NCBI GenBank assembly: GCA_035299585.1
Contig: DATGWF010000077.1
Span: 1,427-65,426 of the forward strand
Direction of reading: 5' to 3'
DNA: 64,000 nucleotides
From: Microbacteriaceae bacterium
Lineage (GTDB): Bacteria > Actinomycetota > Actinomycetes > Actinomycetales > Microbacteriaceae
The notes beneath the pieces were generated by a model, which had not been told where the DNA came from, searched no databases, and saw only the letters and a list, made by a program, of their open reading frames with translations. The translations under genes were made by a program, and so were the position numbers. Positions within the stretch are counted from its first letter, which is position 1. Each line of letters starts with the position of its first letter. Shown one piece after another: positions 48,129 through 64,000 of the stretch.

Positions 48129-48509
48129 GTGAACACGGTACCGGGCAACGGTCAACACGAGTGTGTCGTCATTCCTTCCTCCTCGGACGAGGAGTTCACC
48201 GCCTCGATGTACGCGCTCGTCCCGAAGCTTCGCGCGGGCCTCGTCGTGCTCGGCCGCGGTCCCGTGAGTCCCGCTCTCGCTCGTGATGCGCAGCAGGCGC
48301 TCCGGAGTGAGCGGGTCACCCTGGTCTGGCTGGCACAACCGCAGCCGACCGAGTTCCACCTGGGCATTCCCGATGGGCTCGCCGAGGACGAGCTGGAAGC
48401 CGTGTACGCCTCGCTCGAAGCGGCACTCCCGGAGCTGTTACATCGCGACGTTCGGGTCACGGTGGCGCCGCTCCCGCAAGTGCTCGCACTCAGCCTTAGC
48501 GGAAGATAA
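48129..48509 (+). CDS. hypothetical protein
   Basis: 126-aa ORF with GTG start. GC3-rich codons and non-repetitive composition. No recognised family. Its 3' end overlaps the purU 3' end by 14 nt. Confidence 0.4.
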   Translation: MNTVPGNGQHECVVIPSSSDEEFTASMYALVPKLRAGLVVLGRGPVSPALARDAQQALRSERVTLVWLAQPQPTEFHLGIPDGLAEDELEAVYASLEAALPELLHRDVRVTVAPLPQVLALSLSGR

Positions 48510-49353: not shown

Positions 49354-49373
49354 CCGCCCAGCCTATACACTGA

Positions 49374-49449
49374 ACTCGGTCGCGACTGGCGTTTGGATGG
49401 TCACCATCGGGAAGCGACGAGCACGGATCCGACCGCGCGCCTGGGCCGG
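49374..49449 (+). promoter_or_regulatory. ZTP (pfl-motif) riboswitch aptamer upstream of glyA-folD
   Basis: GGTCGCGACTGGCGTTTGGATGGTCACCATCGGGAAGCGAC ... CCGCGCGCCTGGGCC. This matches the conserved GUCGxGACUGGCG, P2 stem, GGGxAGCGAC 5' subdomain and the CGCCUGGGC 3' pseudoknot element. Downstream genes are classic ZTP-regulon members. Confidence 0.8.
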
Positions 49450-49458
49450 ACTGAACCG

Positions 49459-49482
49459 CCTCAGCGCGCCGTGCTGAGGTTT
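49459..49482 (+). terminator. candidate expression-platform hairpin of the ZTP riboswitch
   Basis: CCTCAGC-GCGCCGT-GCTGAGG followed by TTT, 26 nt upstream of the glyA ATG. The U-tract is short, so termination versus RBS occlusion is unresolved. Confidence 0.45.
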
Positions 49483-49507
49483 CAGAACAACACGAGGAAC
49501 CCACCAC

Positions 49508-50782
49508 ATGACCGATTCGTTCTTCAACCAGCCCCTCGCCGAGGTCGACCCGGAAATCGCCGAGGTCCTTGACCGCGAGTTGAACCGCCAGCGCTCCTAC
49601 CTGGAAATGATCGCCTCCGAGAACTTCGTCCCGGTGTCGGTCCTGCAGTCTCAGGGTTCCGTACTCACCAACAAGTACGCCGAGGGCTACCCCGGCAAGC
49701 GCTACTACGGCGGGTGCGAGGAAGTCGACGTTGCCGAAGAGCTCGCAATCGCTCGCGCCAAGGAACTGTTCGGGGCGAAGTTCGCGAACGTCCAGCCGCA
49801 CTCGGGTGCGACGGCGAACGCGGCCGTGCTCCACGCGATCGCTCGCCCGGGAGACACCCTGCTCGGTCTCTCGCTCGACCAGGGTGGCCACCTCACCCAC
49901 GGAATGAAGATCAACTTCTCCGGCCGGCTGTACAACATCGTCGCCTACGGCGTCGACCCGGAGACCTCGCTCATCGACATGGCAGAGGTGCGTCGACTCG
50001 CCCTCGAGCACCAACCCAAGGTCATCATCGCCGGCTGGTCGGCGTACCCGCGCCACCTCGACTTTGCCGAGTTTCGGGCCATCGCCGACGAGGTCGGCGC
50101 GACCCTGTGGGTCGACATGGCGCACTTTGCCGGCCTGGTGGCCGCCGGACTGCACCCCTCACCGGTGCCCTACGCCGATGTCGTGTCGACGACCGTCCAC
50201 AAGACCCTTTCCGGCCCGCGTTCCGGCCTCATTCTGAGCAACGACGAGGAAATCGCCAAGAAGATCAACTCGGCGGTGTTCCCCGGCCAGCAGGGCGGGC
50301 CACTCATGCACGTGATTGCCGCCAAGGCGACCGCGTTCAAGCTCGCGATGACCCCGGAGTTCAAGGACCGTCAGGCCCGCACCCTCTCCGGTGCGAAGTT
50401 GCTCGCCGAGCGGCTGACCCAGCAGGATGTCGTCGACGCCGGCATCTCGATCCGCTCGGGCGGCACCGACGTGCACCTCGTGCTCGTCGACCTGCGGAAT
50501 GCGGCCATTGACGGCAAGCAGGCCGAAGACCTCCTGCACGAGATTCACATCACCGTCAACCGCAACTCGGTTCCCAACGACCCGCGTCCGCCGATGATTA
50601 CCTCGGGCCTGCGCATCGGTACACCGGCCCTCGCCTCGCGCGGCTTCGGTGACACCGAGTTCGCGGAGGTGGCCGACATCATCGCGCTCGCGCTCCTGCC
50701 GGGCGCCGACGTGCCCGCGCTTCGCGCCCGAGTCGCCAAGCTCACCGAGGCGTTCCCGCTTTACCCCGGTTTGCAGCAGTAA
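49508..50782 (+). CDS. glyA: serine hydroxymethyltransferase
   Basis: 424 aa. PLP-lysine context [13 protein letters not shown] and the N-terminal [17 protein letters not shown] motif. Confidence 0.95.
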
Positions 50783-51672
50783 TGCCGGCAATCCGACTCG
50801 ACGGCGTCGCAACCGCGGCGGCGATTCAGGCGGAACTTGCCGACCGAGTGGCGGCGTTGCAGGAGCGGGGGGTCACCCCCGGCATCGCGACCGTGCTCGT
50901 GGGTGCCGATCCGGCGTCTCAGCTCTACGTGGGCATGAAGCATCGGAAGTCTGAGGCGATCGGGATGAACTCCATTCAGGTGGAGCTTCCGGCCGACGCA
51001 ACTCAAGCCGATGTCGAGGCGGCTATCGATTCGCTCAACGCCGATCCGACCTGCCATGGGTTCATCGTGCAATTGCCGCTCCCGAAGCACCTCGACACCG
51101 ACGCGATTCTGGAACGGATCGATCCGGCAAAAGACGCCGACGGACTGCACCCGACGAACCTGGGTCGTCTCGTTTTGAACGTGAACGAGCCGATTACCAC
51201 GCCGCTTCCGTGCACACCTCGAGCGGTCATTGAACTGCTCCGACGGAACGGCTTCGAACTCGCCGGGAAACACGTCGTGGTTGTCGGCCGTGGGGTCACC
51301 ATCGGCCGGTCGATCGGTTTGTTGCTCGCGCGCCGGGATGTGAACGCCACCGTGACCCAGATTCACACCGGAACACCAAACCCTGGCGACTACCTGCGGC
51401 AAGCGGATGTCATCGTCGCCGCGGCCGGAGTGAAGCATCTCGTGCAACCGGGAGACGTGAAGCCCGGTGCCGCCGTCCTCGATGTGGGTGTCACTCGTGA
51501 GGAGAATCCCACGGGTGGCAAGCCGCTCGTGTTTGGCGACGTCAATCCCGCGGTTGCCGATGTTGCCGGCTGGCTTTCGCCGAACCCCGGCGGGGTCGGC
51601 CCGATGACAGTCGCGCTGCTCATGACCAACGTCGTCGAGGCGGCCGAGCGAGCCGTCCTCCGCGCGATCTAA
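50782..51672 (+). CDS. folD: bifunctional methylenetetrahydrofolate dehydrogenase / methenyltetrahydrofolate cyclohydrolase
   Basis: 296 aa. [27 protein letters not shown] and [12 protein letters not shown] motifs. TAATG overlap with glyA. Confidence 0.95.
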
Positions 51673-51917
51673 CCCTCCTCGGAGCGCCCGCCCTTCGCAG
51701 AAGGGTGTCGTCGGTATCGAGCAAGAGAGAAGGTCGTACCGGTCAGAAACAGGAGTGCTGGGATTGCCCAAACAAGCGGCCCAGATTCGAGACTTGACAT
51801 TCCGACGAAGACGATGACCGCGGCGCCTGCAACGCTGGCCAGCTCAATTAGCAGGCTTCGTTGGTGACGTTCCATAAGGCTATGCCTCCAGTCCAGGGTA
51901 CGTTCAGCTGTGCACAT
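51669..51917 (-). CDS. small 2-TM membrane protein (DUF3017-like, from memory)
   Basis: 82-aa ORF with two hydrophobic helices. Its stop overlaps the folD stop. The start may be the internal ATG (MERHQRS). Confidence 0.45.
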
Positions 51918-52122
51918 CGGCCGTCTCGGGCCGCATCTTCGGGGGGCTCTCGCAAGAACCGCAGGTTACAAGGCCTTGACTGGGGGCAGAACCCGGTTGA
52001 CAAGGTTGTGAATGGGTGGCAGGACATTCCGGGCCTTTCGCGCGGCTACTGGTTCTCGCCGCTGGGCGGGAGCGGGAGCGGGTCGTGGCCGAACGCTCAG
52101 GTCAACCCCTAAACTCAGAGCT

Positions 52123-53181
52123 GTGCCGCACCGGTCCAAACGCCCAGCGACGCGCGCCGATGTCGCGCGTCTCGCCGGCGTGAGTGAAAGCACCGTGTCA
52201 TACGCGCTCTCGGGGGTTCGATCCATCGCGGACGACACGCGCGAACGCATTCTTGCCGCCATGGAGCAGCTCGGATACACCCCAAATGTGATGGCGCAAG
52301 GCCTGGCCGGAAAACGTACCGGGCTCCTGGCGCTGCTTTTCCCGGTCGCCGACCGCGGTTTCGCGACAACCGACTTTGAGTATGTCTCCGCCGCGTCTCG
52401 CGTGGCGCAGGCGAGTGGCCGGCAGGTTCTCATGTGGCCGAACCCGGTCGATGACCTCGACGCGCTCAGGCTTGTTGCCTCACAGCGCCTCGTCGACGGA
52501 TTCATCCTCATGGAGGTGCGCAGTTCCGACCCCCGAGTCGCCGTACTGCAGGAGTATCGACTTCCGTTCGTGTTGATCGGTCGAACCGCGAGCGAGCACG
52601 GCATGAGCTGGGTTGATGCCGACTTCAGCAAGTGGGGCCCCATGGCGATAGACGCCCTCGTCAGCCACGGGCACAGCGACGTCGTGTTCCTGACTCAGCC
52701 GGAATCGTTGTTCCAAGCCGGATACGGTCCGCTCGTTCGCACCGAACGAGACCTCGTTCGCTATGCCGCATCGCAGGGCGTCAACCTCCACGTGATTCGA
52801 GCCGAAGCCACCATTCGCGCCGGCCGCGACGCTTTCGCGCGCATGCTCGCAGAACGACCGAATGTGACCGCCATTCTCGGGTTCAACGAAATCGCCATGA
52901 TCGGCGTGCTCGAGGGAATCAGTGCGTCGGGACGAAGCGTGCCCGCGAACTATTCGGTCCTGCAGTTCGGTATCGGTCCAGCCGCCGCCGAGTACACCAG
53001 CCCGCCTCAAGACACGATTGGCGTTGACGGAGCGATTCTCGGGGCACAGGCGGCCGAGTTTCTATTGCGGCACCTCGATGGACTGGTGGAGGAGCCGCAG
53101 CAGTACCTGGCCGACCCGGTTCGGGTCGATCGCGGCAGCGTCGCGGACGCTCCAAAGCGGACCGGTTCGCCAAAACGCTAG
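52123..53181 (+). CDS. LacI-family transcriptional regulator
   Basis: Track ORF trimmed to GTG 52123. HTH TRADVARLAGVSESTVSYALSG followed by a periplasmic-binding-protein-like sugar sensor domain. Confidence 0.85.
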   Translation: MPHRSKRPATRADVARLAGVSESTVSYALSGVRSIADDTRERILAAMEQLGYTPNVMAQGLAGKRTGLLALLFPVADRGFATTDFEYVSAASRVAQASGRQVLMWPNPVDDLDALRLVASQRLVDGFILMEVRSSDPRVAVLQEYRLPFVLIGRTASEHGMSWVDADFSKWGPMAIDALVSHGHSDVVFLTQPESLFQAGYGPLVRTERDLVRYAASQGVNLHVIRAEATIRAGRDAFARMLAERPNVTAILGFNEIAMIGVLEGISASGRSVPANYSVLQFGIGPAAAEYTSPPQDTIGVDGAILGAQAAEFLLRHLDGLVEEPQQYLADPVRVDRGSVADAPKRTGSPKR

Positions 53182-53242
53182 GCGAACAACGCAGCTCCCC
53201 ATAGGCTGACACCAACGGTGCATGGTCTCGTTGGGGGTGTGA

Positions 53243-54358
53243 ATGGATTCTTCGATTCCCTTTTCTGCGGCAATGTTCGAAGCCATCGGGGAACCGATCG
53301 CGATCGGTCGGCCGGTCTCGATCGAGGGCGAAATCGTCGACGTCGAAATCGTCTGGATGAGTGCCTCGCTCCGAGAGCTCGCCATTGCCGCGAACATCAC
53401 GAGCATGCGGCTCTCCGAGGTCTACCCGGAGATGGTCGACAGCGGCTGGCTCGAAGAGCTCGTTATCGCGCGAGCGACCGGCCGACCGTCGACCCGCTTC
53501 CGGCCCCGACAGCTCGAAGGCCAAGTGCTCGAAGTCATCGAAATCACTGCTCGGTGGGCGGGAGACTGGCTCGTCGCAACCGTGCATAATCTCAGCACGC
53601 GCGCGAGTTCAAACGCCGACATGATTCGAGCCGCGGCCATGGTCACCGAAATGATGGCAGCGAACCCGGTGTTCGCGCGCATCCTCCTGCCGAACCAGAC
53701 CCTCGAGTTTTCGACTCGTGCGTGGCTCGAGGGACGCAGTGGAATCGCGGCAACATTCGACGAGATGGTCCTCGAGGAGGAGCGCGAACGCGTCGAGACC
53801 TGGCAGGCGACGCCGGTCCACGAGCGCGAACCCGTTCTCATGTTTCGCGCGCACCATGGAAACGGGCAGGTGCGTTGGTATTCCGTCCATGCCGAGGTCA
53901 TCGCCGAGACCGGCATCGAGGTGCAGGTGGTCTCGGATGTCGACCACTATCTCCGGGAGACCCGAGCGTCTGAGCGGCTCGCACGCGACCTGCACGGCCA
54001 GCTGGAGGTGCTCACGAGCGCGCTCGATGCATCGACCGACGGTTTTGCGATCTGGCGCGCTCAACGAAACGAACGCGGCGAGATTATGACCTTCATGCTC
54101 GAATTCATGAATACGGTCGGGGCGGCGCCAACGGGGCTCTCGCCCGACCTCCTCGTCAATCGAACGATTGAATCGGTCGTCGGACCGGAGCAGAGCGAAG
54201 GCCTCAAGGCGGCGTTCGCCCTGGTGATTCAGCGCAACGAACCCCAGGTTCGACGGGTCACGGTCGACAGTCCTGCTGGATGGGTTGGCACGTTTGAAAA
54301 CCGTGTCGCCCCCATCGGCCACGATTGCGTCGTGGCCTCGTTCCGCCTCGTCCCTTAG
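53243..54358 (+). CDS. cytoplasmic protein made of three PAS-like domains with no output domain
   Basis: 371 aa. Three ~115-aa segments each show PAS-like topology (for example FEAIGEPIAIGRPV...VDVEIVWMS...ARWAGDWLVATVHNLS, ...GQVRWYSVHAEVI..., and LDASTDGFAIWRAQRNERGEIMTFMLEFMN...). No kinase, GGDEF, HTH or TM region. Confidence 0.65.
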   Translation: MDSSIPFSAAMFEAIGEPIAIGRPVSIEGEIVDVEIVWMSASLRELAIAANITSMRLSEVYPEMVDSGWLEELVIARATGRPSTRFRPRQLEGQVLEVIEITARWAGDWLVATVHNLSTRASSNADMIRAAAMVTEMMAANPVFARILLPNQTLEFSTRAWLEGRSGIAATFDEMVLEEERERVETWQATPVHEREPVLMFRAHHGNGQVRWYSVHAEVIAETGIEVQVVSDVDHYLRETRASERLARDLHGQLEVLTSALDASTDGFAIWRAQRNERGEIMTFMLEFMNTVGAAPTGLSPDLLVNRTIESVVGPEQSEGLKAAFALVIQRNEPQVRRVTVDSPAGWVGTFENRVAPIGHDCVVASFRLVP

Positions 54359-54723
54359 CTGAGAAGCGCCCCGGCCAGCGCGACAAAAATGCCGACGAAG
54401 ATGGCTGGCGTCAGAAACATCGGGACCCACAACCAACGAGCGTGCGACCGAGTGGCTCGAGCGCTCGCCGAGGTGGCGTTCACCGATGCGAGGTCCTCGG
54501 CGATGGCTTTCGCGTCGGCGGCCGCCCCAAACTCGGCAAGCGCGCCAAGAATGCCCGAGGCGAGCAGAATTCCGAGGGTTGCCCACACGGCGAATGTGCC
54601 CGTCGCCCGAATCTCGTCGATGATGCCGACCGTTGTGATGAGCAGAAATGTCGGGGCCAGTTGGGCCACGATGAGTTGGTTCCGGGCGCGCGCCCAGGAA
54701 GCGAGCAACTCGTTCTCGGTCAT
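54355..54723 (-). CDS. hypothetical 3-4 TM membrane protein
   Basis: Track ORF trimmed to ATG 54723. Hydrophobic helices. No family recognised. Confidence 0.5.
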   Translation of the reverse strand: MTENELLASWARARNQLIVAQLAPTFLLITTVGIIDEIRATGTFAVWATLGILLASGILGALAEFGAAADAKAIAEDLASVNATSASARATRSHARWLWVPMFLTPAIFVGIFVALAGALLS

Positions 54724-54767
54724 GTCACTCCTCTCTGCAAAGCGGTGCGCAACGAGCGTAGCAAGCG

Positions 54768-55316
54768 TCACTCGGTTTCGAGACGACGGCCGGCCTTCCA
54801 AGCCTCGACGGTCGTCTCAAAGATGAGTTCGGGGCCGTCCTCCTCGTCAATTTGGACCCCGATTTCCGGAACGTCAAGCCGGTGAATCAACGCGATGGAG
54901 GGTGCGTTCGTTGGTGAAACCGTGTAGCGCAATCGGCGCACCCCCTCTTGCGTGCTCGCCCAGTCCCACATCGCCCGGACGGCTTCTCCAGCGAATCCTT
55001 TGCCTCGTTCCGCTTCGGCAACCCCAAGCCCAATCTCGGCCATTCCGCTCGCGTCCGGAGCGGCGTGGAAGGAGATGCTTCCGACCGCCAGATTACGTGC
55101 GCGGTCGACCATGATCCGGTAGTACCACGAGATGTGCGTCGGGTTGGAGGCGACGTCTGCGGCACGGTTCGCCCGCGGTAGTGGCTCGTTCGAGTACACC
55201 CCGTGCGGGTTCGCAAATGGCCGGTCCTCGAGCGTTCCGGTCTTGAGCTCGCGTTCGGTGACGAGCACGAGGTCGAGTCGAGCGGATCGGATCATTGTCA
55301 TCGGTTCGTGAGGCAT
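54768..55316 (-). CDS. GNAT-family (RimJ/RimL-like) N-acetyltransferase
   Basis: 182 aa. Motif RGKGFAGEAVRAMWDWA and the typical beta-alpha GNAT core. Confidence 0.8.
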   Translation of the reverse strand: MPHEPMTMIRSARLDLVLVTERELKTGTLEDRPFANPHGVYSNEPLPRANRAADVASNPTHISWYYRIMVDRARNLAVGSISFHAAPDASGMAEIGLGVAEAERGKGFAGEAVRAMWDWASTQEGVRRLRYTVSPTNAPSIALIHRLDVPEIGVQIDEEDGPELIFETTVEAWKAGRRLETE

Positions 55317-55442
55317 AGGTTCAGGCTAGGGCCCACCGCGACGATTCCCGCTCCGGGTGGCTCAAGGCAAACACATCGAACGTCGAACTTCGGGGTTTCC
55401 TCACGGGAAATCCTGAAGAGTCTCGAATCGTTCACAAACGCC

Positions 55443-55477
55443 GAAAGCTGGCCCACCGCACGGGCAGGCCAGCTTTC
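55443..55477 (-). terminator. stem-loop after the LAxTG surface-protein gene
   Basis: 11-bp stem GAAAGCTGGCC / GGCCAGCTTTC with a 13-nt loop, 14 nt downstream of the stop at 55491. Confidence 0.5.
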
Positions 55478-55490
55478 GAGGTTCGCGCGA

Positions 55491-56585
55491 CTAGGCCGCG
55501 CGGCGGCGTGCGAGCATCAGGCCCGCGACGGCGATGAGGGACAGCGCAATCGCGCCGGCCGCGGTCATTGCCGAAGCGTCCACACCGGTCGATGCCAGAG
55601 CTACCGGGGTCGGGGTCGGCGTCGGGATCGGGGCCGAAGACGTCCAGTTGATGACGTTCGCGTTCTCGAGACCCACGTTCAGGCGGCCGCTGAAGGTATC
55701 GAACTCAACCGAATTGGCGGCGACTCCATCGGCCCAGGTGATCTGGTCCGCGCTGACGCAGTCGTCGTTGTTGTAGTTCGCAGCGAACAGGGTGTCCGGG
55801 TCCCACAGGATGAATGCGACGACAGTCGCAGAGGCGCCCGGTTCGATGGTGACGTCGTCGATGTGGACGTACCACGAGTCGCCCGACATTTCCGAGACCG
55901 TGGCGCTGTATTCGGCTCCGGCGTCGCCCCATGCCATTGTTCCGGGAGCGTCACACTCGTCGCCGTGGGTGGCCCACATGGCGCTGGCATCGTTGAGAGC
56001 GGCCATAGCGTCCTCGTCCTCATCGACCGGCAGATCCAGCGAGCTCGTGGCGGAGTTCTGGAACGCGCGCAGGCCGCCGCCGTCGACGGTGGAGCTGCTG
56101 CTGCCCCAGTCAGTGTAGAAGCCGAGGTCGACCGTGATGGCCTCGGTGCCGACATTCGTGTACGTCACGGCGTGACGAAACAGGTCACCTTCGACGTAGT
56201 AACGCTGCTCGGACACAGCCGAGAGGTTGTTGTCGGCCAGTACCGAGTTCGACGCAGTGCCGGTCAGGGTGACATCGCCGTTATCGGCTACAACCCGGTC
56301 AAGATCGGCGTCGACGTTAGTGGCGAGCGAGTCGTAGCTGCTCCAGTCGTCGAAGCTGATCTGCGCTTCGAGGCCCGTGTCGAGCACGTCGGTGTACTCG
56401 TCGAAACCGTCACCAATGAGGTCGGCGTCGTTGGCGTTGAGATAATCCGATTCGGCATCCCAGCTCGAGTGGCCGACCTCGACGGTCGAACCGTCCCAAG
56501 GTGCTGCATGTGCGGCCATTGCCGGAACGATGGTGAGCGCTGCGGCTGCTGAAACAGCAGTCAGGCGCACGAGTGTTTTCTTCAT
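55491..56585 (-). CDS. acidic secreted protein with C-terminal LAxTG (LASTG) cell-wall sorting signal
   Basis: 364 aa. Signal peptide MKKTLVRLTAVSAAAALTIVPAMAAHA, a very Asp/Glu-rich body, a TPTPTPTP linker, then LASTG + hydrophobic segment + RRR. GAAGGGG lies upstream of the ATG. Confidence 0.8.
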   Translation of the reverse strand: MKKTLVRLTAVSAAAALTIVPAMAAHAAPWDGSTVEVGHSSWDAESDYLNANDADLIGDGFDEYTDVLDTGLEAQISFDDWSSYDSLATNVDADLDRVVADNGDVTLTGTASNSVLADNNLSAVSEQRYYVEGDLFRHAVTYTNVGTEAITVDLGFYTDWGSSSSTVDGGGLRAFQNSATSSLDLPVDEDEDAMAALNDASAMWATHGDECDAPGTMAWGDAGAEYSATVSEMSGDSWYVHIDDVTIEPGASATVVAFILWDPDTLFAANYNNDDCVSADQITWADGVAANSVEFDTFSGRLNVGLENANVINWTSSAPIPTPTPTPVALASTGVDASAMTAAGAIALSLIAVAGLMLARRRAA

Positions 56586-56767
56586 TGAGTTGCCCCTTCG
56601 TGGACACGAATCGGCGGGTATGCTCCGCCATCGTTAGCGTAGCAGCGGGTCTCTCTCGGACCGAACGCGTTCGCGACTCGAGGTGGGCAGGCGGCGAGTG
56701 GAGAAACAGTGCGGGCCCGAACAGTCCACAGTTCGCCTGTGGCGCCGCTCCTCACGAGCGGATACGG

Positions 56768-56840
<73 letters not shown>

Positions 56841-56970
56841 ATGCCCAAAGGCACGGCTCCAGTGTACGACGTTGTCGGTATGGCAAAAACCAGCGGGAAA
56901 CCCCAAAAAAAAGCATGAAACTGGCACGAAATTGGCGTCGCGCTATATAGAGGCACAATACCCTTGAAAC

Positions 56971-59900
56971 ATGCGGTGGTTGACAGCAACCGCGGTGTCC
57001 GCGCGCCTTCGCGCCGGTGCCGCGGCTGTGGCGACCCTTGCGCTCGTGGCCTCTGGTCTCGTTGTGGAATCCGGGGTCGATGCCGACGGCGCCTGGGGCG
57101 CTCCCACGCGTGTCGCATCGAACCTGCTCATCAACCTCGACGGCAACGACACCACGAGCCTCGCCGCGAGCTCGCCGACGAGCTGGAACAGCATCGCTCC
57201 AGCGTCGTCGCTCGTGTCGAGCACGCTCCGCAACGTGACTCGGTACAACTCCGGTGGCATCGGCGGTCTGACACTTCCAGCGGCTGGCCAAGCTGCCGGA
57301 GGCGCGGCATTCGTGGCGGGAACCGGGGCCGTCGCGGGAGCACAGTCGGCCGACATGTGGATCAACCCCTCGAACCTCAACACCGGCTGGAACATCATCG
57401 CTTCCCGATGGTTTTCCGATAGCGCGGGTTCTTCAGCTGCCGTCCAAGACTGGCACTTCGCCATTTTCGTGAGCGGTTCCACCGGTCTGCTTCGCCTCGA
57501 CACCACCTCCCGCACCGGCAGCAACCCGATCTACGGCTCCCAGACATTCCCGACCACGGGCGCGAATGTGTGGTACCACGTCGGGTTCACCATCGATGCC
57601 AGTGGAAACGCTCAGCTGTACGTCAACGGTCGAGCCGACGGAAGCGCGACGGTTGCAAACGCAATCACGGGAAGCTCGTCTGCGCAACTCTGGGTCGGCG
57701 ACCAACGCGGCGGTATGGGTTCGTTCCCGGGCGTCATCAGCAAATTCCGGATCTACAACACCGCGCTGACCGCCGCCCAAATGCAGCAGAACTATCAGGC
57801 GGAAGGCTCGCTCTACGGCTACCCCGTGGTGACGTTCAAATCGAACTACAGCGGCGGTCCGGCTGACACCTTCCAGAACGTCGGCTACAACGTGGCGACC
57901 GCCCTGACCGGGAACACCTTCACCCGCACCGGATACAGCTTTGCCGGTTGGGCGACGAACGCCAACGGCACGGGCACGACATATGCCAACGGCGCAAACA
58001 TCACGACAACGTCGACGAGCGGCGTGGACCTCTACGCGCAATGGGCGCTCAACCCGGTGAGCCCGACCGTGAGCGGCACTCCTCGGGTCGGTCAAGCACT
58101 CACCGGCACCGCGGGTGTCTCAACAGCCCCGAGCGTCACGTCGAGCTATCAATGGCAGCGATCCGTCGACGGCTCGACCGGTTGGACCGATATTGCCGGT
58201 GCGACCGCCATCAGCTACACGGCCGTGACGGCCGATGCGGGCAACTTCCTCCGTTTGCGCCAGACCATCACCGACGGCACCGTGAGCGCGAGTGGGACGA
58301 GTACCAACACGACGGTCGTGCTCTCGGCCAACAGTGCGGCAGCCACGGCTGGCGTGAACAACGCGGTGACCGATCTCATCCCGGCCGTGCCCAATGACAG
58401 CAACGTGGTGAACGTCACGATTGTGTCCTCGAACCTCAGCACCGGACGGCTGAAGTGGAACGCGACCCCGGCGAACCTCACCGGGGTACTCGGTGCCGAC
58501 CCGAACACCACCGGCTGGATTCCGAAAGAGACGCATTCGAGCACATGGGCGACCGCGGGATTCCCGATTCTCAGTTTCCGCGGAACCGGTGCCGACGTTC
58601 GCACCGCGATGGCGACACTGAACTACACCTCGACGACGGTGCAAACCGACACGCTGCGCATCTATGTGAACTCCGGGAGCAGTCAAGACGCGCACGCTCT
58701 GAACTACATTCCGATCGTCGACAACGGCAACCAGCTCACCTTCCACTACTACGCCTTCCAGACCCAGACCGCGCGAATCTGGACCGACACCCAGGCATAC
58801 CTTCAGGGGCTCACCGACATCGGCACCGGAGTGGTTTCGCCGAACAAGTGGCACCTCATGACACCGCGGTACTGGATTGAAGACAGCCGCGGTTGGGGAC
58901 TCAGCGCCTGGGCCGGCAGGCCTGCCGCAAACAACGTGCTGCTCGGGGGCACGGCAAACGCTGGCTCATCGAGCTGGTACTACCCGGCCGGCACGGACGG
59001 GTACACGAGCCAATCCATTTTCTCGGTCAACGCAACCGCGCAAACCGGCTTCTACGGAGCCACGTGGTACCCGCAAGACGCCGGCACGTCTGTCAGCCGC
59101 GGCATGGAGTACTGGTGCAACAGCTGCACGATGTCGAACGGAAACATCTCGGGGACGGGAACGTTCTTTGCCTGGGATGACATTCCTCGTGACACCACCG
59201 CCATCGGCGCGTACATTGCGGAGACCTGGTCGAGCACTCCGCTCGCCACCTCGACAAGCTCGACCGCCGCGCAAACCGTTCGGACCGTTGTCGGCCCGGA
59301 CGCTCCGACCGGACTCTCCGCGACACCGAGCACATCGACAAGTGTCACCCTGAACTGGACCGCTCCCGCGAGCACGGGCACGGACCCCGTCACCGACTAC
59401 ACGATTCAGACCTCCAGCGACCAGTCCACTTGGACGACCTTTGCCGACGGAGTCTCGAGCGCGACGACCGCGACCGTCACCGGATTGATGACCGGGCAAA
59501 CCTATTGGTTCCGAGTTGCGGCGGTGACGAGCACCGGCGGTGCGTATTCGACGACGGCTTCGGCGTTCACGACGCTGACCGGGAATACCAACGCGCTCGG
59601 TGGATACTCCGTGCCCTCGAACCTCACCGGAACAATTCGGGTACTGCTCTGGTCGAGTAACCCGAACGGCAAGCTCTCTGTCACCTCGGCGACCAACATC
59701 GACGGCGGCATCCGGAACACCGCGAACTATCCCGACACGAACGCCTACACCCCGATCAACGGATTCAACCCGGCGACCATTCTGAGCGCGGGCCGCATGA
59801 TCGGTCTCGTCGACACCAGTGCGAGCGAACTCAACGCAGCGCTCGCAACGCTGAAGTATTCCTCCGCGACCGCCTCGACCGACACCATCCGAATGTGGGT

Positions 59901-62900
59901 GTCGAACGGAACCGAGTACATCCCCATTGCGAACGGATCGAACGTTGAGTTCCACTACTACGGATACGTCGGTTCGAGCCAGACCTGGGCAAACGCACGC
60001 AACACGAGCAACGCCGGTGCCGCACGTACCATCGACGGCGAATCATTGGCGGCGGGCACGTCGTTCTTGGCAACGGCGCGCTATCGCGCCGAAGACCTGT
60101 ATCTGAAGTCGCTCAATTCGAGCTCGGCCTGGTTGAGCGCGGCCGACTTCAGCACGGTCGATGGGAGCAATGCGGAAGGCTCCTGGAAGTGGTACGGCGC
60201 CGACGCGAACGGCAACACGGGCGTGCAGTTCTGGTCCGGCGGGCAGGCGGGGTCGTCGGTCGGTGGCGAATACCAGAACTGGGTTGCGTCGGCTGCGACC
60301 ACCCTGCTCGAACCCAACGGAGGCACCGGCGAGAACTGCCTCGGCTACAACGGTGGCGGCACGTTCAACACCGCGCCGACCTCGGGAGTGGCCTGGAACG
60401 ACTTTGGCTGCACGGGAACCACGACCGGGTATTACTGGGAAGCATTCAAGACGGGTGCGCCGTATGGGTCGAACACCTCGAACCCCGGCGCGAGCAACTA
60501 TGCCGCACCCGCGGTGTCGTCCACCATTTCCGTCGCGGCTCCCGTCGCCGCACCGACCGGCCTCACGGCAACGAGTGCGACCGCCGGTCAGATCGACCTG
60601 AGCTGGACAGCCCCCGCCGGTGTGAACGGCATCACCAGCTATTCGATTCAAACCACGACCGACGGCTCCACCTGGACGGAGACCCGCACCACCGCATCGA
60701 CGGCGACGACCCACACCCTGACGGGACTCACGAGCGGCACCTATTACCACATCCGTGTCGCCGCAATCACGGCGAACGGCACGGGCTCGTACGCCTCGAC
60801 GTACTTCACGCCCAACGGCGGGAACCGCATCAGTGCGACGACCAACACGGCGAAGACCATCACTACGATGCAGGTGGATACCGCCATCGGTTCGACGCGC
60901 TACGTGCGCGTCGTGCTTCGCGCCACGAACGCCGGTGCCACCCTCAAACTCGCCGGATCGACCGCAAACATCGGCGCCCAGCGAGGAACCGCGAACGCGG
61001 CAAGCCTCAGCGCCGCCGGGCAGATGATCGGTCTGACCGGAACCGTCGCGAACGTCAACCTCGCACTCCAGGGTCTCAGCTACACCGGACCGGGTTCCGC
61101 GACGACGGACTCGATTGCGATGTGGGTCTCCGCGGGAACGACCGCGAGTACCCCGCGGGATTTCGTGCCCGTCGTGAACAGCCGAGGCGAGGTGGAATTC
61201 CACTACTTCGGATTCACCAACAGCACCCTCACATGGCAGGGGGCATTCAACGCGGCCGCCGCCGACTCCACCCAGATCAACGGCGTCAATGCTCCGGGCA
61301 AGTTCCTCGCCACGCTCGAGAGCCTCGATCAGCAGGTCGCCGCCATGCAGTACTACACCAATGGCGCCTGGCTCGGCGGCGGTGACTACACGGCCGTGAA
61401 CTCGGCGAACGCGGACGGCGCATGGTACTGGCTCGGCCCTGACACGGGCGTGACCCAGTTCTACAGCGGAAGCAACGCGAGCGGCACTGGCGGCATCGTG
61501 GGCGGATCGTTTGTCGCCTGGGGCGCGAGCAACTCGACAACACAGCAGGAGCCCAACAACGGCGTCCAGCAAAACTGTCTGGCGACAATCGCCACCCCGA
61601 ACGCCCTCACCAACTCTGGATTCGTTGCGGTCTCGGCCGTTGGCGGTTACGCCTGGGACGACGGCTCGTGTACCAGCACCCAATCGTCATATGTCTGGGA
61701 ATACGTCTCGAACGAACCCGTCGGTGGCGCGACCCCGGGCGACAACTACGCGACCATGACGGCGCAGGCCGTTGTGGTCAACCCCAATGCCGATGCGCCC
61801 ACCGCCGTCACCGCGAACGCTGCCGGGTCGACGGCCGTCGCGGTCGGCTGGACAAGCCCGACCGTCTACGACTCCAACCCGCTCACCGGCTACACCGTCC
61901 AGTATTCGACGAGCTCGAGCTTCACTTCGCCATCGTCATTCGCAACGGGCTCGACCTCGCCGTTCGCACTCGTGACCGGGCTCACCGCGAACACGACCTA
62001 CTATTTCCGCGTCTTCGCGACCGGTTCCGGTTGGACGGGCCTCACCAGCGCCGCGACCGGGGCCGTCACCACCCCATCGAGCGCAACCAGCATCACCATT
62101 GTCAGCTCGGGCGGTGCCGCCGCGAGCGCGTACAGCCTGACCGGTGGCATTGTGACCGTGAAGACCGGCACGAGCGTGAGCATCAATGCGGCGGACGTGG
62201 TCACGCAGCTTGGCGCCCGTGATGTGCAGATTGCCGCGGACTCCGTCACGATCAACGCTGCCCTCGCGTGGACTGCCAACACCCGACTCACTCTCGGCTT
62301 GTCGAGCGCCTCGACGGTGAACGTCAATGCCGATATCTCGTCGGGCTCCGCGACCGCCGGAGTCGCCATCTTGCCGGCGGCCTGTGCGTTCAGTTCCGCT
62401 GGTAGCTACTCGGGCTGTTACTCGCTCGATGTCAAGAGCGGTGCCAACATTGCCCTCAGTGGAGCGACGCCCACACTCGCAATCGGCGGCCAGGCGTACA
62501 CCGTGCTGAATACGGCCGCGCAGGTTCGGGCACTCAGCAGTAACGCGGGCACTGGCCTGTATGCAGTGACGAACGACGTCGACCTGTCCGGTACGACGGC
62601 AACGACATCAATCGCGTTTGCCAGCGGGTTCTCGGGCACGTTCGACGGTCTCGGTAACACCGTTCGCGGCATTACCTCGAGCGGAAGTTCGTCGTTCGGG
62701 TTCATGCAGTCGATCCAGTCGCCGGGTGTGGTGCGGAACCTCGGCGTGAACGCAAACATCACCCTGACGGCTCCGGGCGCGACTGCAGCCATTGTCGGCG
62801 GCGGTCTGGCCGGGTTCGTGGGCACGGCGGGAAACACCACGATTGACCAGGTGTGGACGACCGGTTCGATTCAAACCGGAAGCGGCTCGTACGGGGCCAT

Positions 62901-64000
62901 CTCGGCCGGTGGTCTCGTGGGAAACGCCTGGGGAAGCTCGCTCAGGATAACGCGCTCGTGGTCGAGCATGAACATCGATACGAGCGCCACGCCCACCTTC
63001 AGCAACGTCGCGCTATCGGGCGGCGGAAGCCAAGCGACCGGCCCGTGTCTTGGCATCGGCGGCCTCGTCGGAACGAACACCGGATCGTTCTGCACGAGCA
63101 GCGCCGGGGCGAACATCTCCGTTGAGCAGGTCTACAGCACGGGCTCGCTCAAGCGGGGAGCCGCTCCGACGTGGCACGGCGTCGGCGGCCTGTTCGGTGT
63201 GGTCACGACGGGTTCTACGGTGTCAGCTACTGACGCGTTCACGTGGGGCCGATACAGCTCGACCGACAGCTTGGCAAGTGTCGGCGGCATGACCGGCTTT
63301 GGAACCGCAAGCTACACCCGGACGTACACCTCGCACTCGGCATGTGCGGCGAACACGACGGCAACCGGGTGTACCTCCAGTGTGCGGCCCGGAACGACCG
63401 GCACCTATTCGACCGCGGCCTGGACCTCGACCAACGGCACCACCCTCGCGAACCTCGCATCCCCGACCATCGCCCTGTTTGTCCGGCCCACCGCCCCGAG
63501 CGACGGGAGCGCGGCAACGGTCGGATACTCGGTGACCGACGCGGCTGGCAACGACTACAAGTCTCTGATGGGTACGACCGGATACCCGACGCTCTCGGGG
63601 GCACCCACCTGGGACACCATCACCACCAGTTCGGGAATCGGGTCGTACAGCGTGACCTATGCCTCGGGGCTGTCACTCACCGGTTCCGGCTCGAGCGCGT
63701 ACACCTTGAATGCGGCGCCGACGGGCACGACCATTGCCATCACCAAGGTGGCCCAAACCATCACCTGGTCTCCGACCACCGCGCTCGTTCGCACCGACAG
63801 CGGCACCGTGCTTCCCGCGGCAACGACCGACGGCGCTGGCGCCATCAGTTACGCGGTGAGCGCGGGAACGGCCTCGTGTGCCTTCAACGCGACGACTCGC
63901 GCACTGACCTTCACTGCGAGCGGAACCTGTGACATCACGGTCACGGCCGCCGCCACGAGCACCAACCTCCAAGCGACCCTCACCCGAACCTTCACCATCG
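56971..64000 (+). CDS. giant secreted multidomain surface protein, 3'-partial (at least 2,343 codons; LamG, InlB-B-repeat, Ig, 3x[unknown domain + C-type-lectin-like + FN3], beta-helix/GLUG, MBG, Ig)
   Basis: Not in the supplied track. Frame +1 was hand-translated from ATG 56971 (preceded by in-frame TGA 56965) to 64000 without a stop. All listed + ORFs in this span lie in the other two frames. N-terminal signal peptide MRWLTATAVSARLRAGAAAVATLALVASGLVV. Domain motifs are listed in the findings. Confidence 0.9.
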   Translation, partial: MRWLTATAVSARLRAGAAAVATLALVASGLVVESGVDADGAWGAPTRVASNLLINLDGNDTTSLAASSPTSWNSIAPASSLVSSTLRNVTRYNSGGIGGLTLPAAGQAAGGAAFVAGTGAVAGAQSADMWINPSNLNTGWNIIASRWFSDSAGSSAAVQDWHFAIFVSGSTGLLRLDTTSRTGSNPIYGSQTFPTTGANVWYHVGFTIDASGNAQLYVNGRADGSATVANAITGSSSAQLWVGDQRGGMGSFPGVISKFRIYNTALTAAQMQQNYQAEGSLYGYPVVTFKSNYSGGPADTFQNVGYNVATALTGNTFTRTGYSFAGWATNANGTGTTYANGANITTTSTSGVDLYAQWALNPVSPTVSGTPRVGQALTGTAGVSTAPSVTSSYQWQRSVDGSTGWTDIAGATAISYTAVTADAGNFLRLRQTITDGTVSASGTSTNTTVVLSANSAAATAGVNNAVTDLIPAVPNDSNVVNVTIVSSNLSTGRLKWNATPANLTGVLGADPNTTGWIPKETHSSTWATAGFPILSFRGTGADVRTAMATLNYTSTTVQTDTLRIYVNSGSSQDAHALNYIPIVDNGNQLTFHYYAFQTQTARIWTDTQAYLQGLTDIGTGVVSPNKWHLMTPRYWIEDSRGWGLSAWAGRPAANNVLLGGTANAGSSSWYYPAGTDGYTSQSIFSVNATAQTGFYGATWYPQDAGTSVSRGMEYWCNSCTMSNGNISGTGTFFAWDDIPRDTTAIGAYIAETWSSTPLATSTSSTAAQTVRTVVGPDAPTGLSATPSTSTSVTLNWTAPASTGTDPVTDYTIQTSSDQSTWTTFADGVSSATTATVTGLMTGQTYWFRVAAVTSTGGAYSTTASAFTTLTGNTNALGGYSVPSNLTGTIRVLLWSSNPNGKLSVTSATNIDGGIRNTANYPDTNAYTPINGFNPATILSAGRMIGLVDTSASELNAALATLKYSSATASTDTIRMWVSNGTEYIPIANGSNVEFHYYGYVGSSQTWANARNTSNAGAARTIDGESLAAGTSFLATARYRAEDLYLKSLNSSSAWLSAADFSTVDGSNAEGSWKWYGADANGNTGVQFWSGGQAGSSVGGEYQNWVASAATTLLEPNGGTGENCLGYNGGGTFNTAPTSGVAWNDFGCTGTTTGYYWEAFKTGAPYGSNTSNPGASNYAAPAVSSTISVAAPVAAPTGLTATSATAGQIDLSWTAPAGVNGITSYSIQTTTDGSTWTETRTTASTATTHTLTGLTSGTYYHIRVAAITANGTGSYASTYFTPNGGNRISATTNTAKTITTMQVDTAIGSTRYVRVVLRATNAGATLKLAGSTANIGAQRGTANAASLSAAGQMIGLTGTVANVNLALQGLSYTGPGSATTDSIAMWVSAGTTASTPRDFVPVVNSRGEVEFHYFGFTNSTLTWQGAFNAAAADSTQINGVNAPGKFLATLESLDQQVAAMQYYTNGAWLGGGDYTAVNSANADGAWYWLGPDTGVTQFYSGSNASGTGGIVGGSFVAWGASNSTTQQEPNNGVQQNCLATIATPNALTNSGFVAVSAVGGYAWDDGSCTSTQSSYVWEYVSNEPVGGATPGDNYATMTAQAVVVNPNADAPTAVTANAAGSTAVAVGWTSPTVYDSNPLTGYTVQYSTSSSFTSPSSFATGSTSPFALVTGLTANTTYYFRVFATGSGWTGLTSAATGAVTTPSSATSITIVSSGGAAASAYSLTGGIVTVKTGTSVSINAADVVTQLGARDVQIAADSVTINAALAWTANTRLTLGLSSASTVNVNADISSGSATAGVAILPAACAFSSAGSYSGCYSLDVKSGANIALSGATPTLAIGGQAYTVLNTAAQVRALSSNAGTGLYAVTNDVDLSGTTATTSIAFASGFSGTFDGLGNTVRGITSSGSSSFGFMQSIQSPGVVRNLGVNANITLTAPGATAAIVGGGLAGFVGTAGNTTIDQVWTTGSIQTGSGSYGAISAGGLVGNAWGSSLRITRSWSSMNIDTSATPTFSNVALSGGGSQATGPCLGIGGLVGTNTGSFCTSSAGANISVEQVYSTGSLKRGAAPTWHGVGGLFGVVTTGSTVSATDAFTWGRYSSTDSLASVGGMTGFGTASYTRTYTSHSACAANTTATGCTSSVRPGTTGTYSTAAWTSTNGTTLANLASPTIALFVRPTAPSDGSAATVGYSVTDAAGNDYKSLMGTTGYPTLSGAPTWDTITTSSGIGSYSVTYASGLSLTGSGSSAYTLNAAPTGTTIAITKVAQTITWSPTTALVRTDSGTVLPAATTDGAGAISYAVSAGTASCAFNATTRALTFTASGTCDITVTAAATSTNLQATLTRTFTI
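58321..59574 (+). repeat. supermodule copy 1 of the giant protein (unknown domain + degenerate CTLD + FN3)
   Basis: Anchors: ...AMATLNYTS..TDTLRIYVNSG...LTFHYYAF (58735-), ...FFAWDDIPRD..., FN3 at 59296-59574 (PTGLSATPSTSTSVTLNWTAP...YWFRVAAVTSTG). Confidence 0.7.
59575..60813 (+). repeat. supermodule copy 2 (unknown domain + CTLD with EPN/WND + FN3)
   Basis: Anchors: ...ALATLKYSS..TDTIRMWVSNG...VEFHYYGY (59944-), EPN at 60310-60318, WND at 60394-60402, FN3 at 60541-60813. Confidence 0.75.
60814..62076 (+). repeat. supermodule copy 3 (unknown domain + CTLD with EPN/WDD + FN3)
   Basis: Anchors: ...ALQGLSYTG..TDSIAMWVSAG...VEFHYFGF (61192-), EPN at 61549-61557, WDD at 61654-61662, FN3 at 61789-62076. 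Confidence 0.75.

Follow-up and report, generated by a model that had tools for sequence, protein, structure and literature searches.

SasG, Aap, SraP, and CshA are examples of fibrillar adhesins and fibrillar adhesin-like proteins in the definition of Monzon et al. [quoted passage not shown] The protein described here, whose gene runs off the 3′ edge of the 64,000-nucleotide stretch of DNA analyzed (the window), shares the general organization of Gram-positive fibrillar adhesins, i.e., a predicted signal peptide, N-terminal adhesive and lectin-type domains, an Ig/FN3 rod, and a predicted C-terminal attachment, all on a single polypeptide. In contrast to SasG, Aap, SraP, and CshA, it is far larger, with at least 5,432 residues (∼6,640 in an orthologue). 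Its head strings together at least seven modules of binding type rather than one, its lectin modules belong to the C-type and are neither legume-like nor L-type, and the anchor of its relatives is a transmembrane helix with a basic tail that lacks LPXTG. The terms "C-type lectin" and "Lectin_C" are absent from the main text of two fibrillar-adhesin surveys, PMC8286594 included. The open frame is the 5′ part of a giant gene of a soil Microbacteriaceae that likely encodes a fibrillar adhesin with a putative glycan-binding head on a long stalk, and as such an unusually large case of a known kind of bacterial adhesin that leaves current understanding intact.

Periscope proteins (Whelan et al. 2021, PMC8201768) similarly use a tandem-repeat stalk to project an N-terminal binding region from the Gram-positive surface, and their near-identical repeats recombine, varying protein length. 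In contrast, protein-level identity among the stalk repeats of the present protein is only 30 to 60%, too low for fast changes of length to be expected, and the window part of the gene is free of DNA repeats of at least 40 nt. The giant TIGR02543 proteins ("InlB B-repeat-containing") known from soil and freshwater Actinomycetota (for example, P0021, P0022, and P0057 from Rhodoluna-like MAGs) share with it a LamG plus Flg_new cassette, at 38 to 47% identity, as well as FN3 domains. Flg_new repeats, in their dozens, and Gly-rich modules make up most of these proteins, whereas the present one contains a single Flg_new repeat, together with CTLD cassettes, a GLUG module, and an FN3/Ig stalk. The usual targets of diversity-generating retroelements (DGRs) are C-type-lectin folds of bacterial proteins (PMC11661182).

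An open frame of 2,343 codons at the window edge

The gene occupies the 3′ end of the window as follows.

56971..64000, + strand: predicted giant surface protein gene, 5′ 43% of the CDS (codons 1–2343 of at least 5,432), running off the window edge; open frame, frame statistics, and 100% identity to HLP23575.1

Translation of 56965–64000 yielded TGA at 56965, then Asn, and then Met at 56971, from which frame +1 continues for 2,343 sense codons to base 64000. No stop occurs in this frame, as compared to 57, 18, 100, 10, and 61 in the other five over 56971–64000; even if stops arose as seldom as in the frame with 10, the chance of an equally long open run would be ∼e^-10. GC3 ranged from 0.76 to 0.84 in all 600-nt blocks of frame +1, and the 2,343 residues of the product include 359 Thr, 328 Ala, 277 Gly, 275 Ser, and 14 Cys. 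Codon-position GC of the sense frame is atypical (GC1 of 0.51, below GC2 of 0.62) because the product is rich in Thr, Ser, Ala, Gly, and Asn, and the antisense frame sharing its third positions (0.62/0.51/0.81) is nearer to a normal gene of the window. The frame therefore cannot be chosen from GC statistics alone, and frame-specific GC or codon statistics, suggested in an earlier note on this DNA as a test of the frame, were not decisive, with the antisense frame looking the more gene-like. What does identify frame +1 is its freedom from stops (0, as against 61 in that antisense frame) and the Pfam matches in its product, i.e., fn3 (E = 1e-36), Laminin_G_3 (5e-19), and Flg_new (1.7e-7). Nucleotides 56971–64000 are confirmed as part of a genuine gene.

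The earlier note had described an open frame at 56971–64000, read it as a genuine gene, the largest of the window and cut by its edge, with a Thr/Ser/Gly/Asn/Ala-rich, Cys-poor product, and proposed an actinobacterial origin; the codon and residue counts above, the frame statistics, and the public record agree on each point. It had also observed that no listed + strand ORF after 56971 lies in frame +1, and all eight (56964, 57948, 58455, 58877, 60161, 60189, 61668, and 63243) do fall in the other two frames. The giant frame is absent from the ORF track because the track omits ORFs running off an end, and the minus-strand ORFs fit the frame statistics as shadows of the gene, as had been suggested. 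Its designation as a missing gene is correct for the window ORF track and incorrect for GenBank, where a partial CDS is already annotated. The ORF track thus hid the largest gene of the window, which calls for a partial-gene-aware caller; the GenBank pipeline had called it.

In the public record, the product is 100% identical to residues 1–2,343 of P0093 (GenBank HLP23575.1), a 5,432-residue entry of a Microbacteriaceae MAG titled "fibronectin type III domain-containing protein, partial", which is likewise annotated from ATG 56971 and itself ends mid-domain at a contig end. This entry was recovered by an exhaustive profile search, a word-indexed protein search having missed it. The window neighbours and the giant product together match HLP23567–HLP23575 exactly. 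The source organism is known as a metagenome-assembled genome, and all functional claims made here are based on sequences and models. Searched against GTDB genomes, the N-terminal 510 residues retrieved distant Ig-domain matches only, in many genomes. A Pfam scan of the neighbouring genes covered 43212–56585. The idea of a genomic island, suggested by the adjacent tRNA-Lys, was rejected: the GC content of the gene (0.648) equals that of the window (0.647), and the tRNA and giant gene are kept together in a syntenic locus, L033.

Domain architecture of the window part

The window part of the product comprises the following features.

56971..57084, + strand: putative Sec-type signal peptide, ∼aa 1–38, with cleavage after VDA or after AWG; hydrophobic aa 15–37 after Arg residues
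57337..57780, + strand: LamG/concanavalin A-like jelly roll, Pfam core aa 123–270; Laminin_G_3
57829..58041, + strand: Listeria-Bacteroides (Flg_new) repeat, aa 287–357; PF09479, above gathering score
58051..58296, + strand: Ig-like domain of AIR9/SCAB type with "YQWQ" motif, aa 361–442; IG_AIR9, E = 0.016, a weak match
58318..59298, + strand: cassette 1, aa 450–776, beta-sandwich and degenerate C-type lectin-like domain; self-similarity, family profile, motif alignment
59299..59553, + strand: FN3 domain 1, aa 777–861; best Pfam fn3 stretch, local HMM
59563..60543, + strand: cassette 2, aa 865–1191, beta-sandwich and C-type lectin domain with complete predicted Ca2+/sugar site; model, Foldseek, profile, motifs
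60550..60798, + strand: FN3 domain 2, aa 1194–1276; Pfam fn3, local HMM
60808..61800, + strand: cassette 3, aa 1280–1610, beta-sandwich and C-type lectin-like domain with partly substituted site; self-similarity, family profile, motif alignment
61795..62049, + strand: FN3 domain 3, aa 1609–1693; Pfam fn3, local HMM
62053..62562, + strand: short beta-helical stem at module start, ∼aa 1695–1864; homologues P0089–P0092, AlphaFold2 model with pLDDT 86.2
62620..63342, + strand: GLUG-type beta-helix with repeated GGLVG-like turns and no protease domain, ∼aa 1884–2124; Foldseek, family Pfam matches
63460..63999, + strand: two beta-sandwiches, YDG/MBG-like (∼aa 2164–2259) and Ig-like (∼aa 2264–2343); model and Foldseek, a weak assignment

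Residues 15 to 37 form the sole strongly hydrophobic stretch of the 5,432 recorded residues; Arg residues precede them, the N-termini of relatives P0099 and P0103 are alike, and all 14 Cys sit in close pairs within the head. The signal peptide proposed in the earlier note is consistent with this segment, and three further units that it had named were recovered: the jelly roll, by a Laminin_G_3 match within the range given for it; the Listeria-Bacteroides repeat, with agreeing coordinates; and the Ig-like unit, by the weak IG_AIR9 match. Domains of this Ig type occur in 17 copies in P0093, where they alternate with FN3 in the stalk, and homologues carry PF23197/PF16709. The LamG core lies in a conserved cassette (∼aa 45–285) common to P0021, P0022, P0028, P0029, and others.

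Self-similarity delineated three cassettes of ∼410 residues, each composed of a beta-sandwich, a divergent C-type lectin domain, and an FN3 domain. The lectin copies of the window have no Pfam match even at E = 10, and segments without assignment returned nothing in direct Pfam and NCBIfam scans at the same threshold or in sequence searches of the PDB. Among members of the lectin family, 12 of 26 match Pfam Lectin_C (best 2.8e-12), and the family profile matched 131 solved CTLDs in the PDB (best E = 2.6e-12). An AlphaFold2 model of cassette 2 (pLDDT 78.9, pTM 0.82) retrieved CD23, CEL-I, MBP, the mannose receptor, and CLEC-2 in Foldseek searches with probability 1.0 and target TM of 0.6 to 0.78. 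The family profile and predicted structure, on which the lectin assignment in the window rests, identify the modeled fold as a CTLD.

Characterized C-type lectins with an EPN motif are selective for sugars whose 3- and 4-OH groups are equatorial, i.e., mannose, glucose, GlcNAc, and fucose. Cassette 2 contains the EPN...E-x-C...WND...C residues through which animal C-type lectin CRDs (mannose-binding protein, CD23, CLEC4D, and langerin; PF00059) bind Ca2+ and sugar, namely EPN at aa 1114–1116 (nt 60310–60318), Glu1121, WND at aa 1142–1144 (nt 60394–60402), and the flanking pair Cys1123–Cys1147. It is the only one of the three cassettes with the full EPN...E...WND site. Cassette 3 has EPN, Gln in place of Glu, WDD, and Cys1536–Cys1567, and cassette 1 has lost EPN and the Cys pair and retained WDD, so that one protein contains a series of intact, partly substituted, and degenerate lectin sites. 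In contrast to the animal proteins, with which the predicted model shares its fold, the domains are 13 to 19% identical to solved structures, the window copies falling below Pfam detection; long insertions separate EPN from WND, every domain has a beta-sandwich fused before it and an FN3 domain after it, and the site is partly or wholly gone from cassettes 1 and 3. Standard domain searches miss a cassette whose predicted C-type lectin sugar site is fully canonical, and close members of the cassette family likewise go undetected by Pfam.

The window part closes with a 650-residue module containing a GLUG-type beta-helix, which resembles the N-domain of M26 IgA1 proteases. Foldseek searches with the module model retrieved 3n6z (E = 2.2e-5) and the IgA1 proteases 6xja, 7uvl, 6xjb, and 7uvk (probability 1.0), and, of the 13 family members, two match Pfam Glug (PF07581; 1.8e-20) and one matches Peptidase_M26_N. 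As in the IgA1 metalloproteases (6xja and 7uvl) and Bacteroides BACOVA_03286 (3n6z), the predicted right-handed beta-helix is built with G-G-L-x-G turns, aligns over ∼330 columns, and would be extracellular; in contrast to the metalloproteases, it is placed mid-adhesin, is accompanied by no metalloprotease domain, and is followed by the YDG/MBG-like and Ig-like domains. These closing beta-sandwiches matched the cadherin-like modules of SraP (4m03/4m00) in Foldseek searches, and one family member matches YDG (E = 0.005). The stem preceding the helix aligns to the region after the TPS domain in the haemagglutinin-like proteins P0089–P0092, so that similarity starts past their TPS domain; PF05860, as found in TpsA/filamentous haemagglutinin, is absent here. 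In relatives P0001, P0094, and P0095, the whole GLUG module is repeated two to three times.

Stalk and predicted C-terminal attachment

Beyond the window, a local HMM detected 16 alternating FN3 and Ig pairs at aa 2350–5432 of P0093. With respect to the features of fibrillar adhesins, the protein thus has an apparent tandem-domain stalk; binding-type domains extend over its N-terminal 2,343 residues as a putative terminal adhesive region, and export is suggested by the N-terminal basic and hydrophobic segment, which is conserved in relatives, and by the paired Cys. No anchor was seen in the 5,432 recorded residues, the record lacking the 3′ end, and none of the hydrophobic segments within aa 1–5432 has an LPXTG-like motif nearby. 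The syntenic orthologue P0168, from locus L033 (LacI, neighbours 49%, 72%, and 56% identical, tRNA-Lys, giant gene), is 52 to 55% identical to the giant gene, and its C-terminal part runs from a Pro-rich linker through an Ig-like domain to a Trp-rich transmembrane helix, with an Arg/Lys tail (RRRARS) at the very end. P0094, P0008, P0100, P0105, P0108, and P0113 likewise end in a transmembrane helix and basic tail. In the orthologue and these six relatives, the terminal 19-residue hydrophobic segments have Kyte-Doolittle values of 2.1 to 3.3 and precede the Arg/Lys tail. From orthologues ∼52% identical, we infer that the protein's own anchor is a transmembrane helix with a basic tail.

A released, soluble or matrix-forming glycan-binding scaffold (of a biofilm matrix, a sheath, or an S-layer-like assembly) would agree with 5,432 residues devoid of an anchor and with the absence of Pfam SLH and LysM matches in the window product, and a recognizable anchor is absent in many predicted fibrillar adhesins (PMC8286594). 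This is unlikely in view of the hydrophobic segments and basic tails that end the orthologue and six complete relatives, and of the N-terminal head and C-terminal stalk, the layout of anchored Gram-positive proteins (PMC8286594).

Cell-wall attachment by sortase, implied by the LPXTG/LAxTG ending that the earlier note had expected, has a distinctly low probability. The closest relatives do not support it, since the pentapeptide is absent from the last 60 residues of P0168, P0094, P0008, P0100, and P0105, which have the whole architecture and end in the transmembrane helix and Arg/Lys tail. P0086 and P0087, the two stand-alone proteins most closely related to the GLUG module, do carry LPNTG and LSRTG, respectively, followed by a hydrophobic helix and basic tail, and sortase anchoring is the commonest anchor among Gram-positive fibrillar adhesins (PMC8286594). 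The Pfam model Gram_pos_anchor has no match; anchor calls were based on motif and hydropathy checks because this model also misses the visible LPNTG of P0086. On the evidence of these relatives, the fibres of this lineage appear to be anchored by a transmembrane helix rather than by sortase.

Proposed function as a fibrillar adhesin

As a membrane-anchored fibrillar adhesin, the protein would be exported by its Sec signal peptide, and its C-terminus would be held in the cytoplasmic membrane by a helix and Arg/Lys tail like those of the orthologues. The rod of at least 16 alternating FN3/Ig pairs, with an estimated length of ∼100 nm or more at ∼3.5 to 4 nm per domain, would carry the N-terminal head through the wall. 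The head, i.e., the window part, would present a battery of binding modules comprising LamG, Flg_new, Ig, three lectin cassettes, and the GLUG module. Ca2+-dependent binding of mannose/glucose/GlcNAc/fucose-type glycans is predicted for cassette 2 because it keeps every residue of the canonical EPN site; candidate targets are glycans on other cells, on the surfaces of fungi or plants, or on particles of polysaccharide. Cassettes 1 and 3 have diverged from this site; they may recognize different ligands or serve as spacers.

Some features would suit an enzyme or effector (a protease of the M26 type, a glycanase, or a haemagglutinin-like fibre bearing a contact-dependent toxin): the GLUG beta-helix, known best from IgA1 metalloproteases, the TPS haemagglutination domain of distant homologues, and the membership of LamG in the "lectin/glucanase" superfamily. 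The 5,432 residues contain no HExxH or other catalytic motif, and Pfam searches of the protein found no Peptidase_M26 catalytic domain (Peptidase_M26_C), TPS domain (PF05860), or toxin domain. The orthologue's C-terminus is an anchor rather than a toxin, and two-partner secretion is a Gram-negative outer-membrane system, a misfit for an actinobacterium. A catalytic or toxic function is thus very improbable, and a protease was rejected on the missing HExxH and catalytic domain.

It is hardly more credible that the frame is a decaying or unexpressed relic. A scan of 56500–57100 returned no promoter or terminator sites, no Shine-Dalgarno-like signal was recognized upstream, and a frameshift breaks the L033 orthologue. 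This frameshift could be a sign that such genes decay but is probably an error, the contig having a coverage of 2.6x. Neutral decay is incompatible with 16.3 kb free of stops, and the Cys pairs and lectin-site residues are conserved. The 52 to 55% identity of the giant gene to its orthologue is similar to that of the flanking genes (49–72%) and therefore indicates ordinary purifying selection. The C-type lectin folds as DGR variable regions of a hypervariable receptor, a reading prompted by the usual bacterial target fold, can be all but dismissed as far as the window goes: no direct repeat of 40 nt or more touches the gene within the 64 kb, whose only repeat families lie at 30051–30142 and 22380/35219, DGR variable regions are located at protein C-termini whereas these lectin domains are internal, and the sites are canonical animal-type EPN/WND.

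As a fibrillar adhesin, the protein would add a very large, well-resolved example to those of environmental Actinomycetota, on which, to our knowledge, almost nothing has been tested. Tentatively, and with less confidence than attaches to the adhesin itself, the beta-sandwich and C-type lectin cassette may represent an undescribed bacterial adhesive family, by which soil and freshwater Actinomycetota would capture mannose/glucose-type glycans through an animal-type Ca2+-dependent EPN site at the tip of a membrane-anchored fibre of more than 100 nm, with sites that duplicate and then decay within one protein. A literature search found no paper on the cassette family, which is rare: a set of 1.84 billion proteins yielded 76 representatives at E ≤ 1e-3, of which 14 reach E ≤ 1e-30.

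Reading frame and public record

Translation of frame +1 across 56965–64000 yielded a TGA, one Asn codon, a Met at 56971 and 2,343 sense codons up to the window edge with no stop, bearing out the open frame described in the earlier note; the remaining five frames contain 57, 18, 100, 10, and 61 stops over the same 7 kb. None of the plus-strand ORFs past 56971 in the window ORF list shares this frame, because the ORF tool omits ORFs running off an end. The gene called "missing" in that note is thus absent from the track as an artefact, but not from the public record, where it is already annotated.

GC3 of the giant gene is 0.81 overall and 0.76 to 0.84 in every 600-nt block. GC1 (0.51) is lower than GC2 (0.62), the reverse of other window genes, because Thr, Ser, Ala, Gly, and Asn are so abundant in the protein. 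The antisense frame with common third positions (0.62/0.51/0.81) therefore mimics a normal gene and appears more "gene-like" by composition. Only 10 stops interrupt the antisense frame whose first positions are GC-rich, which leaves shadow ORFs as long as 546 aa (60043–61683). Gene callers that rely on GC frame could go astray at 56971–64000. Codon statistics, offered earlier as a possible refutation, do not decide the frame; it is fixed as the sense frame by stop counts together with domain matches. The original observation is correct and its interpretation largely so.

Five neighboring proteins have exact GenBank matches (HLP23567, HLP23568, HLP23569, HLP23571, and HLP23574) in a third-party-annotated Microbacteriaceae metagenome-assembled genome (locus tags VK139_059xx; contig of 74,691 bp). 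P0093, a product of 5,432 aa, came out of an exhaustive profile search in which the repeated unit was the query. It and the window translation are 100% identical across all 2,343 residues and share the Met start. The GenBank accession of P0093 is HLP23575.1, under the name "fibronectin type III domain-containing protein, partial", and the giant gene had therefore already been called publicly; 43% of this known product is encoded in the window. The record breaks off mid Ig domain ("...SYQWQLDAGAGWRDIAGATS") and so stops at the contig end. If it reaches the last codon of the contig, the window would start near contig position 1,426, and past base 64000 would lie ∼9.3 kb of the giant gene and nothing else.

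Cassettes with C-type lectin-like domains and a GLUG-type module

The encoded head is organized as follows (residues of the product).

aa 123–270: Laminin_G_3 (Pfam)
aa 287–357: Flg_new (Pfam)
aa 361–442: Ig-like domain (weak match)
aa 450–861: cassette 1 (self-comparison)
aa 865–1276: cassette 2 (self-comparison)
aa 1280–1693: cassette 3 (self-comparison)
aa 1695–2343: GLUG module

The profile-HMM check thus recovered the jelly-roll and Listeria-Bacteroides-type repeat of the earlier note as Laminin_G_3 and Flg_new, together with three FN3 domains in the window part. Its Ig-like unit was matched only weakly (IG_AIR9, E = 0.016), yet this domain type occurs in 17 copies across full P0093. Each cassette spans ∼410 aa with FN3 at its end, and the ∼330 aa ahead of each FN3 had no match in Pfam, NCBIfam, or PDB sequences, lax thresholds included. 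The cassette family is small: among 1.84 billion representatives its profile matched 76 proteins at E ≤ 1e-3, 14 of them at ≤ 1e-30. A C-type lectin signature is plain in its remoter members: of 26 aligned members, 12 individually matched Pfam Lectin_C (best 2.8e-12), and the family profile matched 131 C-type lectin domains among solved structures, the best being CLEC4D (2.6e-12). Cassette 2, modelled with AlphaFold2 (pLDDT 78.9, pTM 0.82), matched, as a predicted structure, the C-type lectin-like domains of CD23, CEL-I, mannose-binding protein, and mannose receptor with probability 1.0. Sugar-site residues were read from the alignment.

Cassette 1: EPN lost; Glu lost; WDD; Cys pair lost
Cassette 2: E1114-P-N1116; Glu E1121; W1142-N-D1144; Cys C1123/C1147
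Cassette 3: EPN kept; Q in place of Glu; WDD; Cys C1536/C1567

By sequence, the complete EPN/Glu/WND/Cys constellation is kept in cassette 2, and cassettes 1 and 3 have drifted to differing degrees. Because its EPN site is intact, cassette 2 is predicted from established C-type lectin knowledge to bind mannose/glucose-type sugars in a Ca2+-dependent manner. The N-terminal half of every cassette is a beta-sandwich, whose core segment occurs in 8 to 15 copies in proteins whose annotation names bacterial cadherin-like/Big_9 domains, a name we apply tentatively.

The last 650 window residues form a module without a Pfam match. Its nearest relatives are P0087 (919 aa) and P0086 (1,018 aa), both complete, with remoter resemblance to proteins containing TPS and GLUG domains. 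The AlphaFold2 model of aa 1695–2343 is all-beta (pLDDT 86.2, pTM 0.81). For its central ∼330 residues, structural matches were to BACOVA_03286 from Bacteroides, in its GLUG-type beta-helix (3n6z; E = 2.2e-5), and to IgA1 metalloproteases from streptococci and Gemella, in their N-terminal domain (probability 1.0). More distally, the model is similar to cadherin-like modules found in SraP, an adhesin. Within the module family, 2 of 13 members matched Glug (1.8e-20), 1 of 13 Peptidase_M26_N, and 1 of 13 YDG.

Stalk, probable anchor, and proposed protein class

Residues 2350 to 5432 of P0093 comprise 16 alternating FN3/Ig pairs of 30 to 60% mutual identity. The stalk contains no cysteines; the 14 in the protein form seven close pairs, all in the head. 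Among relatives, the complete P0094 (5,986 aa) combines three cassettes with two GLUG modules; P0001 and P0008 have one cassette each, accompanied by 2.5 GLUG modules in the former and a long stalk in the latter. The LamG/Flg_new combination is common to the giant protein and "InlB B-repeat" giants of freshwater and soil Actinomycetota.

A syntenic locus (L033; ENA, 183-kb contig) carries LacI, orthologues of the window 371-aa (49% identity), 148-aa (72%), and GNAT (56%) proteins, tRNA-Lys(UUU) on the same strand, and the giant gene (52–55%), followed by ordinary metabolic genes. A frameshift within cassette 2 splits that giant gene into calls of 920 + 5,716 aa (∼6,640 codons when read through); this is probably an assembly error rather than a true pseudogene, since contig coverage is 2.6x. 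At the split site (L033 9900–10100), "...NTANYPDTNAYTPLNGYNPATLLSAGRMIGLVDSS..." reads through in another frame. Its 3′ end is complete: final FN3, Pro-rich linker, Ig-like domain, "EAWLWWAIFGALVMLMLLAIIALRRRARS", and stop. The orthologue P0168 extends ∼750 residues past the point aligned with the P0093 end, so by this comparison the giant gene is probably about 6,000 to 6,200 codons long.

From this syntenic orthologue we infer a C-terminal membrane anchor, and P0094, P0008, P0100, P0105, P0108, and P0113 end like it, their last 60 residues lacking any sortase-type pentapeptide. Among relatives compared, such a motif is limited to the small GLUG-module proteins P0086 (LPNTG) and P0087 (LSRTG). 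Sortase anchoring of the giant protein is less probable, as is its release from the cell. The sole hydrophobic segment in the 5,432-aa P0093 sequence is N-terminal. P0086, a stand-alone GLUG-module protein, lies at ∼9524–12580 of L031 (Logan SRR22388182); around it are two Flg_new proteins, one TIG-domain protein, and two response-regulator/histidine-kinase pairs, suggesting that the organism has a surface-protein cluster under regulation.

Fibrillar adhesins have a published definition and a typical Gram-positive polarity (PMC8286594). Like these, the giant protein appears exported, with N-terminal binding-type domains, a long tandem Ig/FN3 rod, and, by orthology, a probable C-terminal membrane anchor. 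As this layout fits both definition and polarity, we read the gene as encoding a giant fibrillar adhesin and its window part as a multi-lectin head. The repeats are too divergent for a strictly defined Periscope protein; lack of a TPS domain rules out a TpsA protein, and lack of a catalytic domain an IgA1 protease; neither HExxH nor another catalytic motif was found across the 5,432 residues of P0093. A DGR target was rejected from a repeat comparison across the 64 kb, in which the gene took part in no repeat ≥ 40 nt. The protein is a very large addition to a known kind, encoded by a gene already annotated publicly; new here are the domain-level reading, chiefly the hidden C-type lectin cassettes and GLUG module, the full-size estimate, and the inferred anchor type.

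Genomic neighborhood and other window features

The surroundings are chromosomal housekeeping genes (ABC exporter pair, GNAT, purU, ZTP riboswitch, glyA, folD, and LacI), and the GC content of the giant gene equals that of the window.

53243–54358, plus strand: uncharacterised protein (49% identity to L033 gene; weak PAS-fold matches, PAS_4 E = 6e-5)
54355–54801, minus strand: uncharacterised protein (72% identity to L033 gene)
56766–56840, minus strand: tRNA-Lys (anticodon UUU), 130 nt upstream of the giant-gene ATG, on the opposite strand

The tRNA-Lys also lies upstream of the L033 giant gene (L033 5050–5123), there with three small genes in between; with both the tRNA and the giant gene conserved, nothing points to an origin as an island or prophage. 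Among the L033 genes that precede the giant gene, ORF 55491–56585 (minus strand) had no BLASTP match at E ≤ 1e-5. By eye, the A-rich 130-nt spacer shows no clear Shine-Dalgarno sequence, and a scan of 56500–57100 detected no promoter-like or terminator-like sites. The two uncharacterised proteins are conserved beside the giant gene in both genomes, and a regulatory link to it is possible.

Three further features were recorded.

17506–17636, minus strand: FMN riboswitch (101 bits)
30051–30142: ∼four tandem copies of a 23-nt unit (CGCCTCACCGAACTCGGCTGAAT)
49372–49453, plus strand: ZMP/ZTP riboswitch (45.1 bits; gathering score 39)

The ZMP/ZTP riboswitch lies directly upstream of glyA (49508–50782) and folD (50782–51672) and divergent from purU (48496–49353, minus strand), a classic one-carbon-metabolism arrangement. 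The FMN riboswitch is upstream of a minus-strand ORF run (16439–17566 and further), presumed to encode riboflavin biosynthesis or transport. The tandem repeat is apparently intergenic, between ORFs 29613–30071 (plus strand) and 30265–31071 (minus strand).
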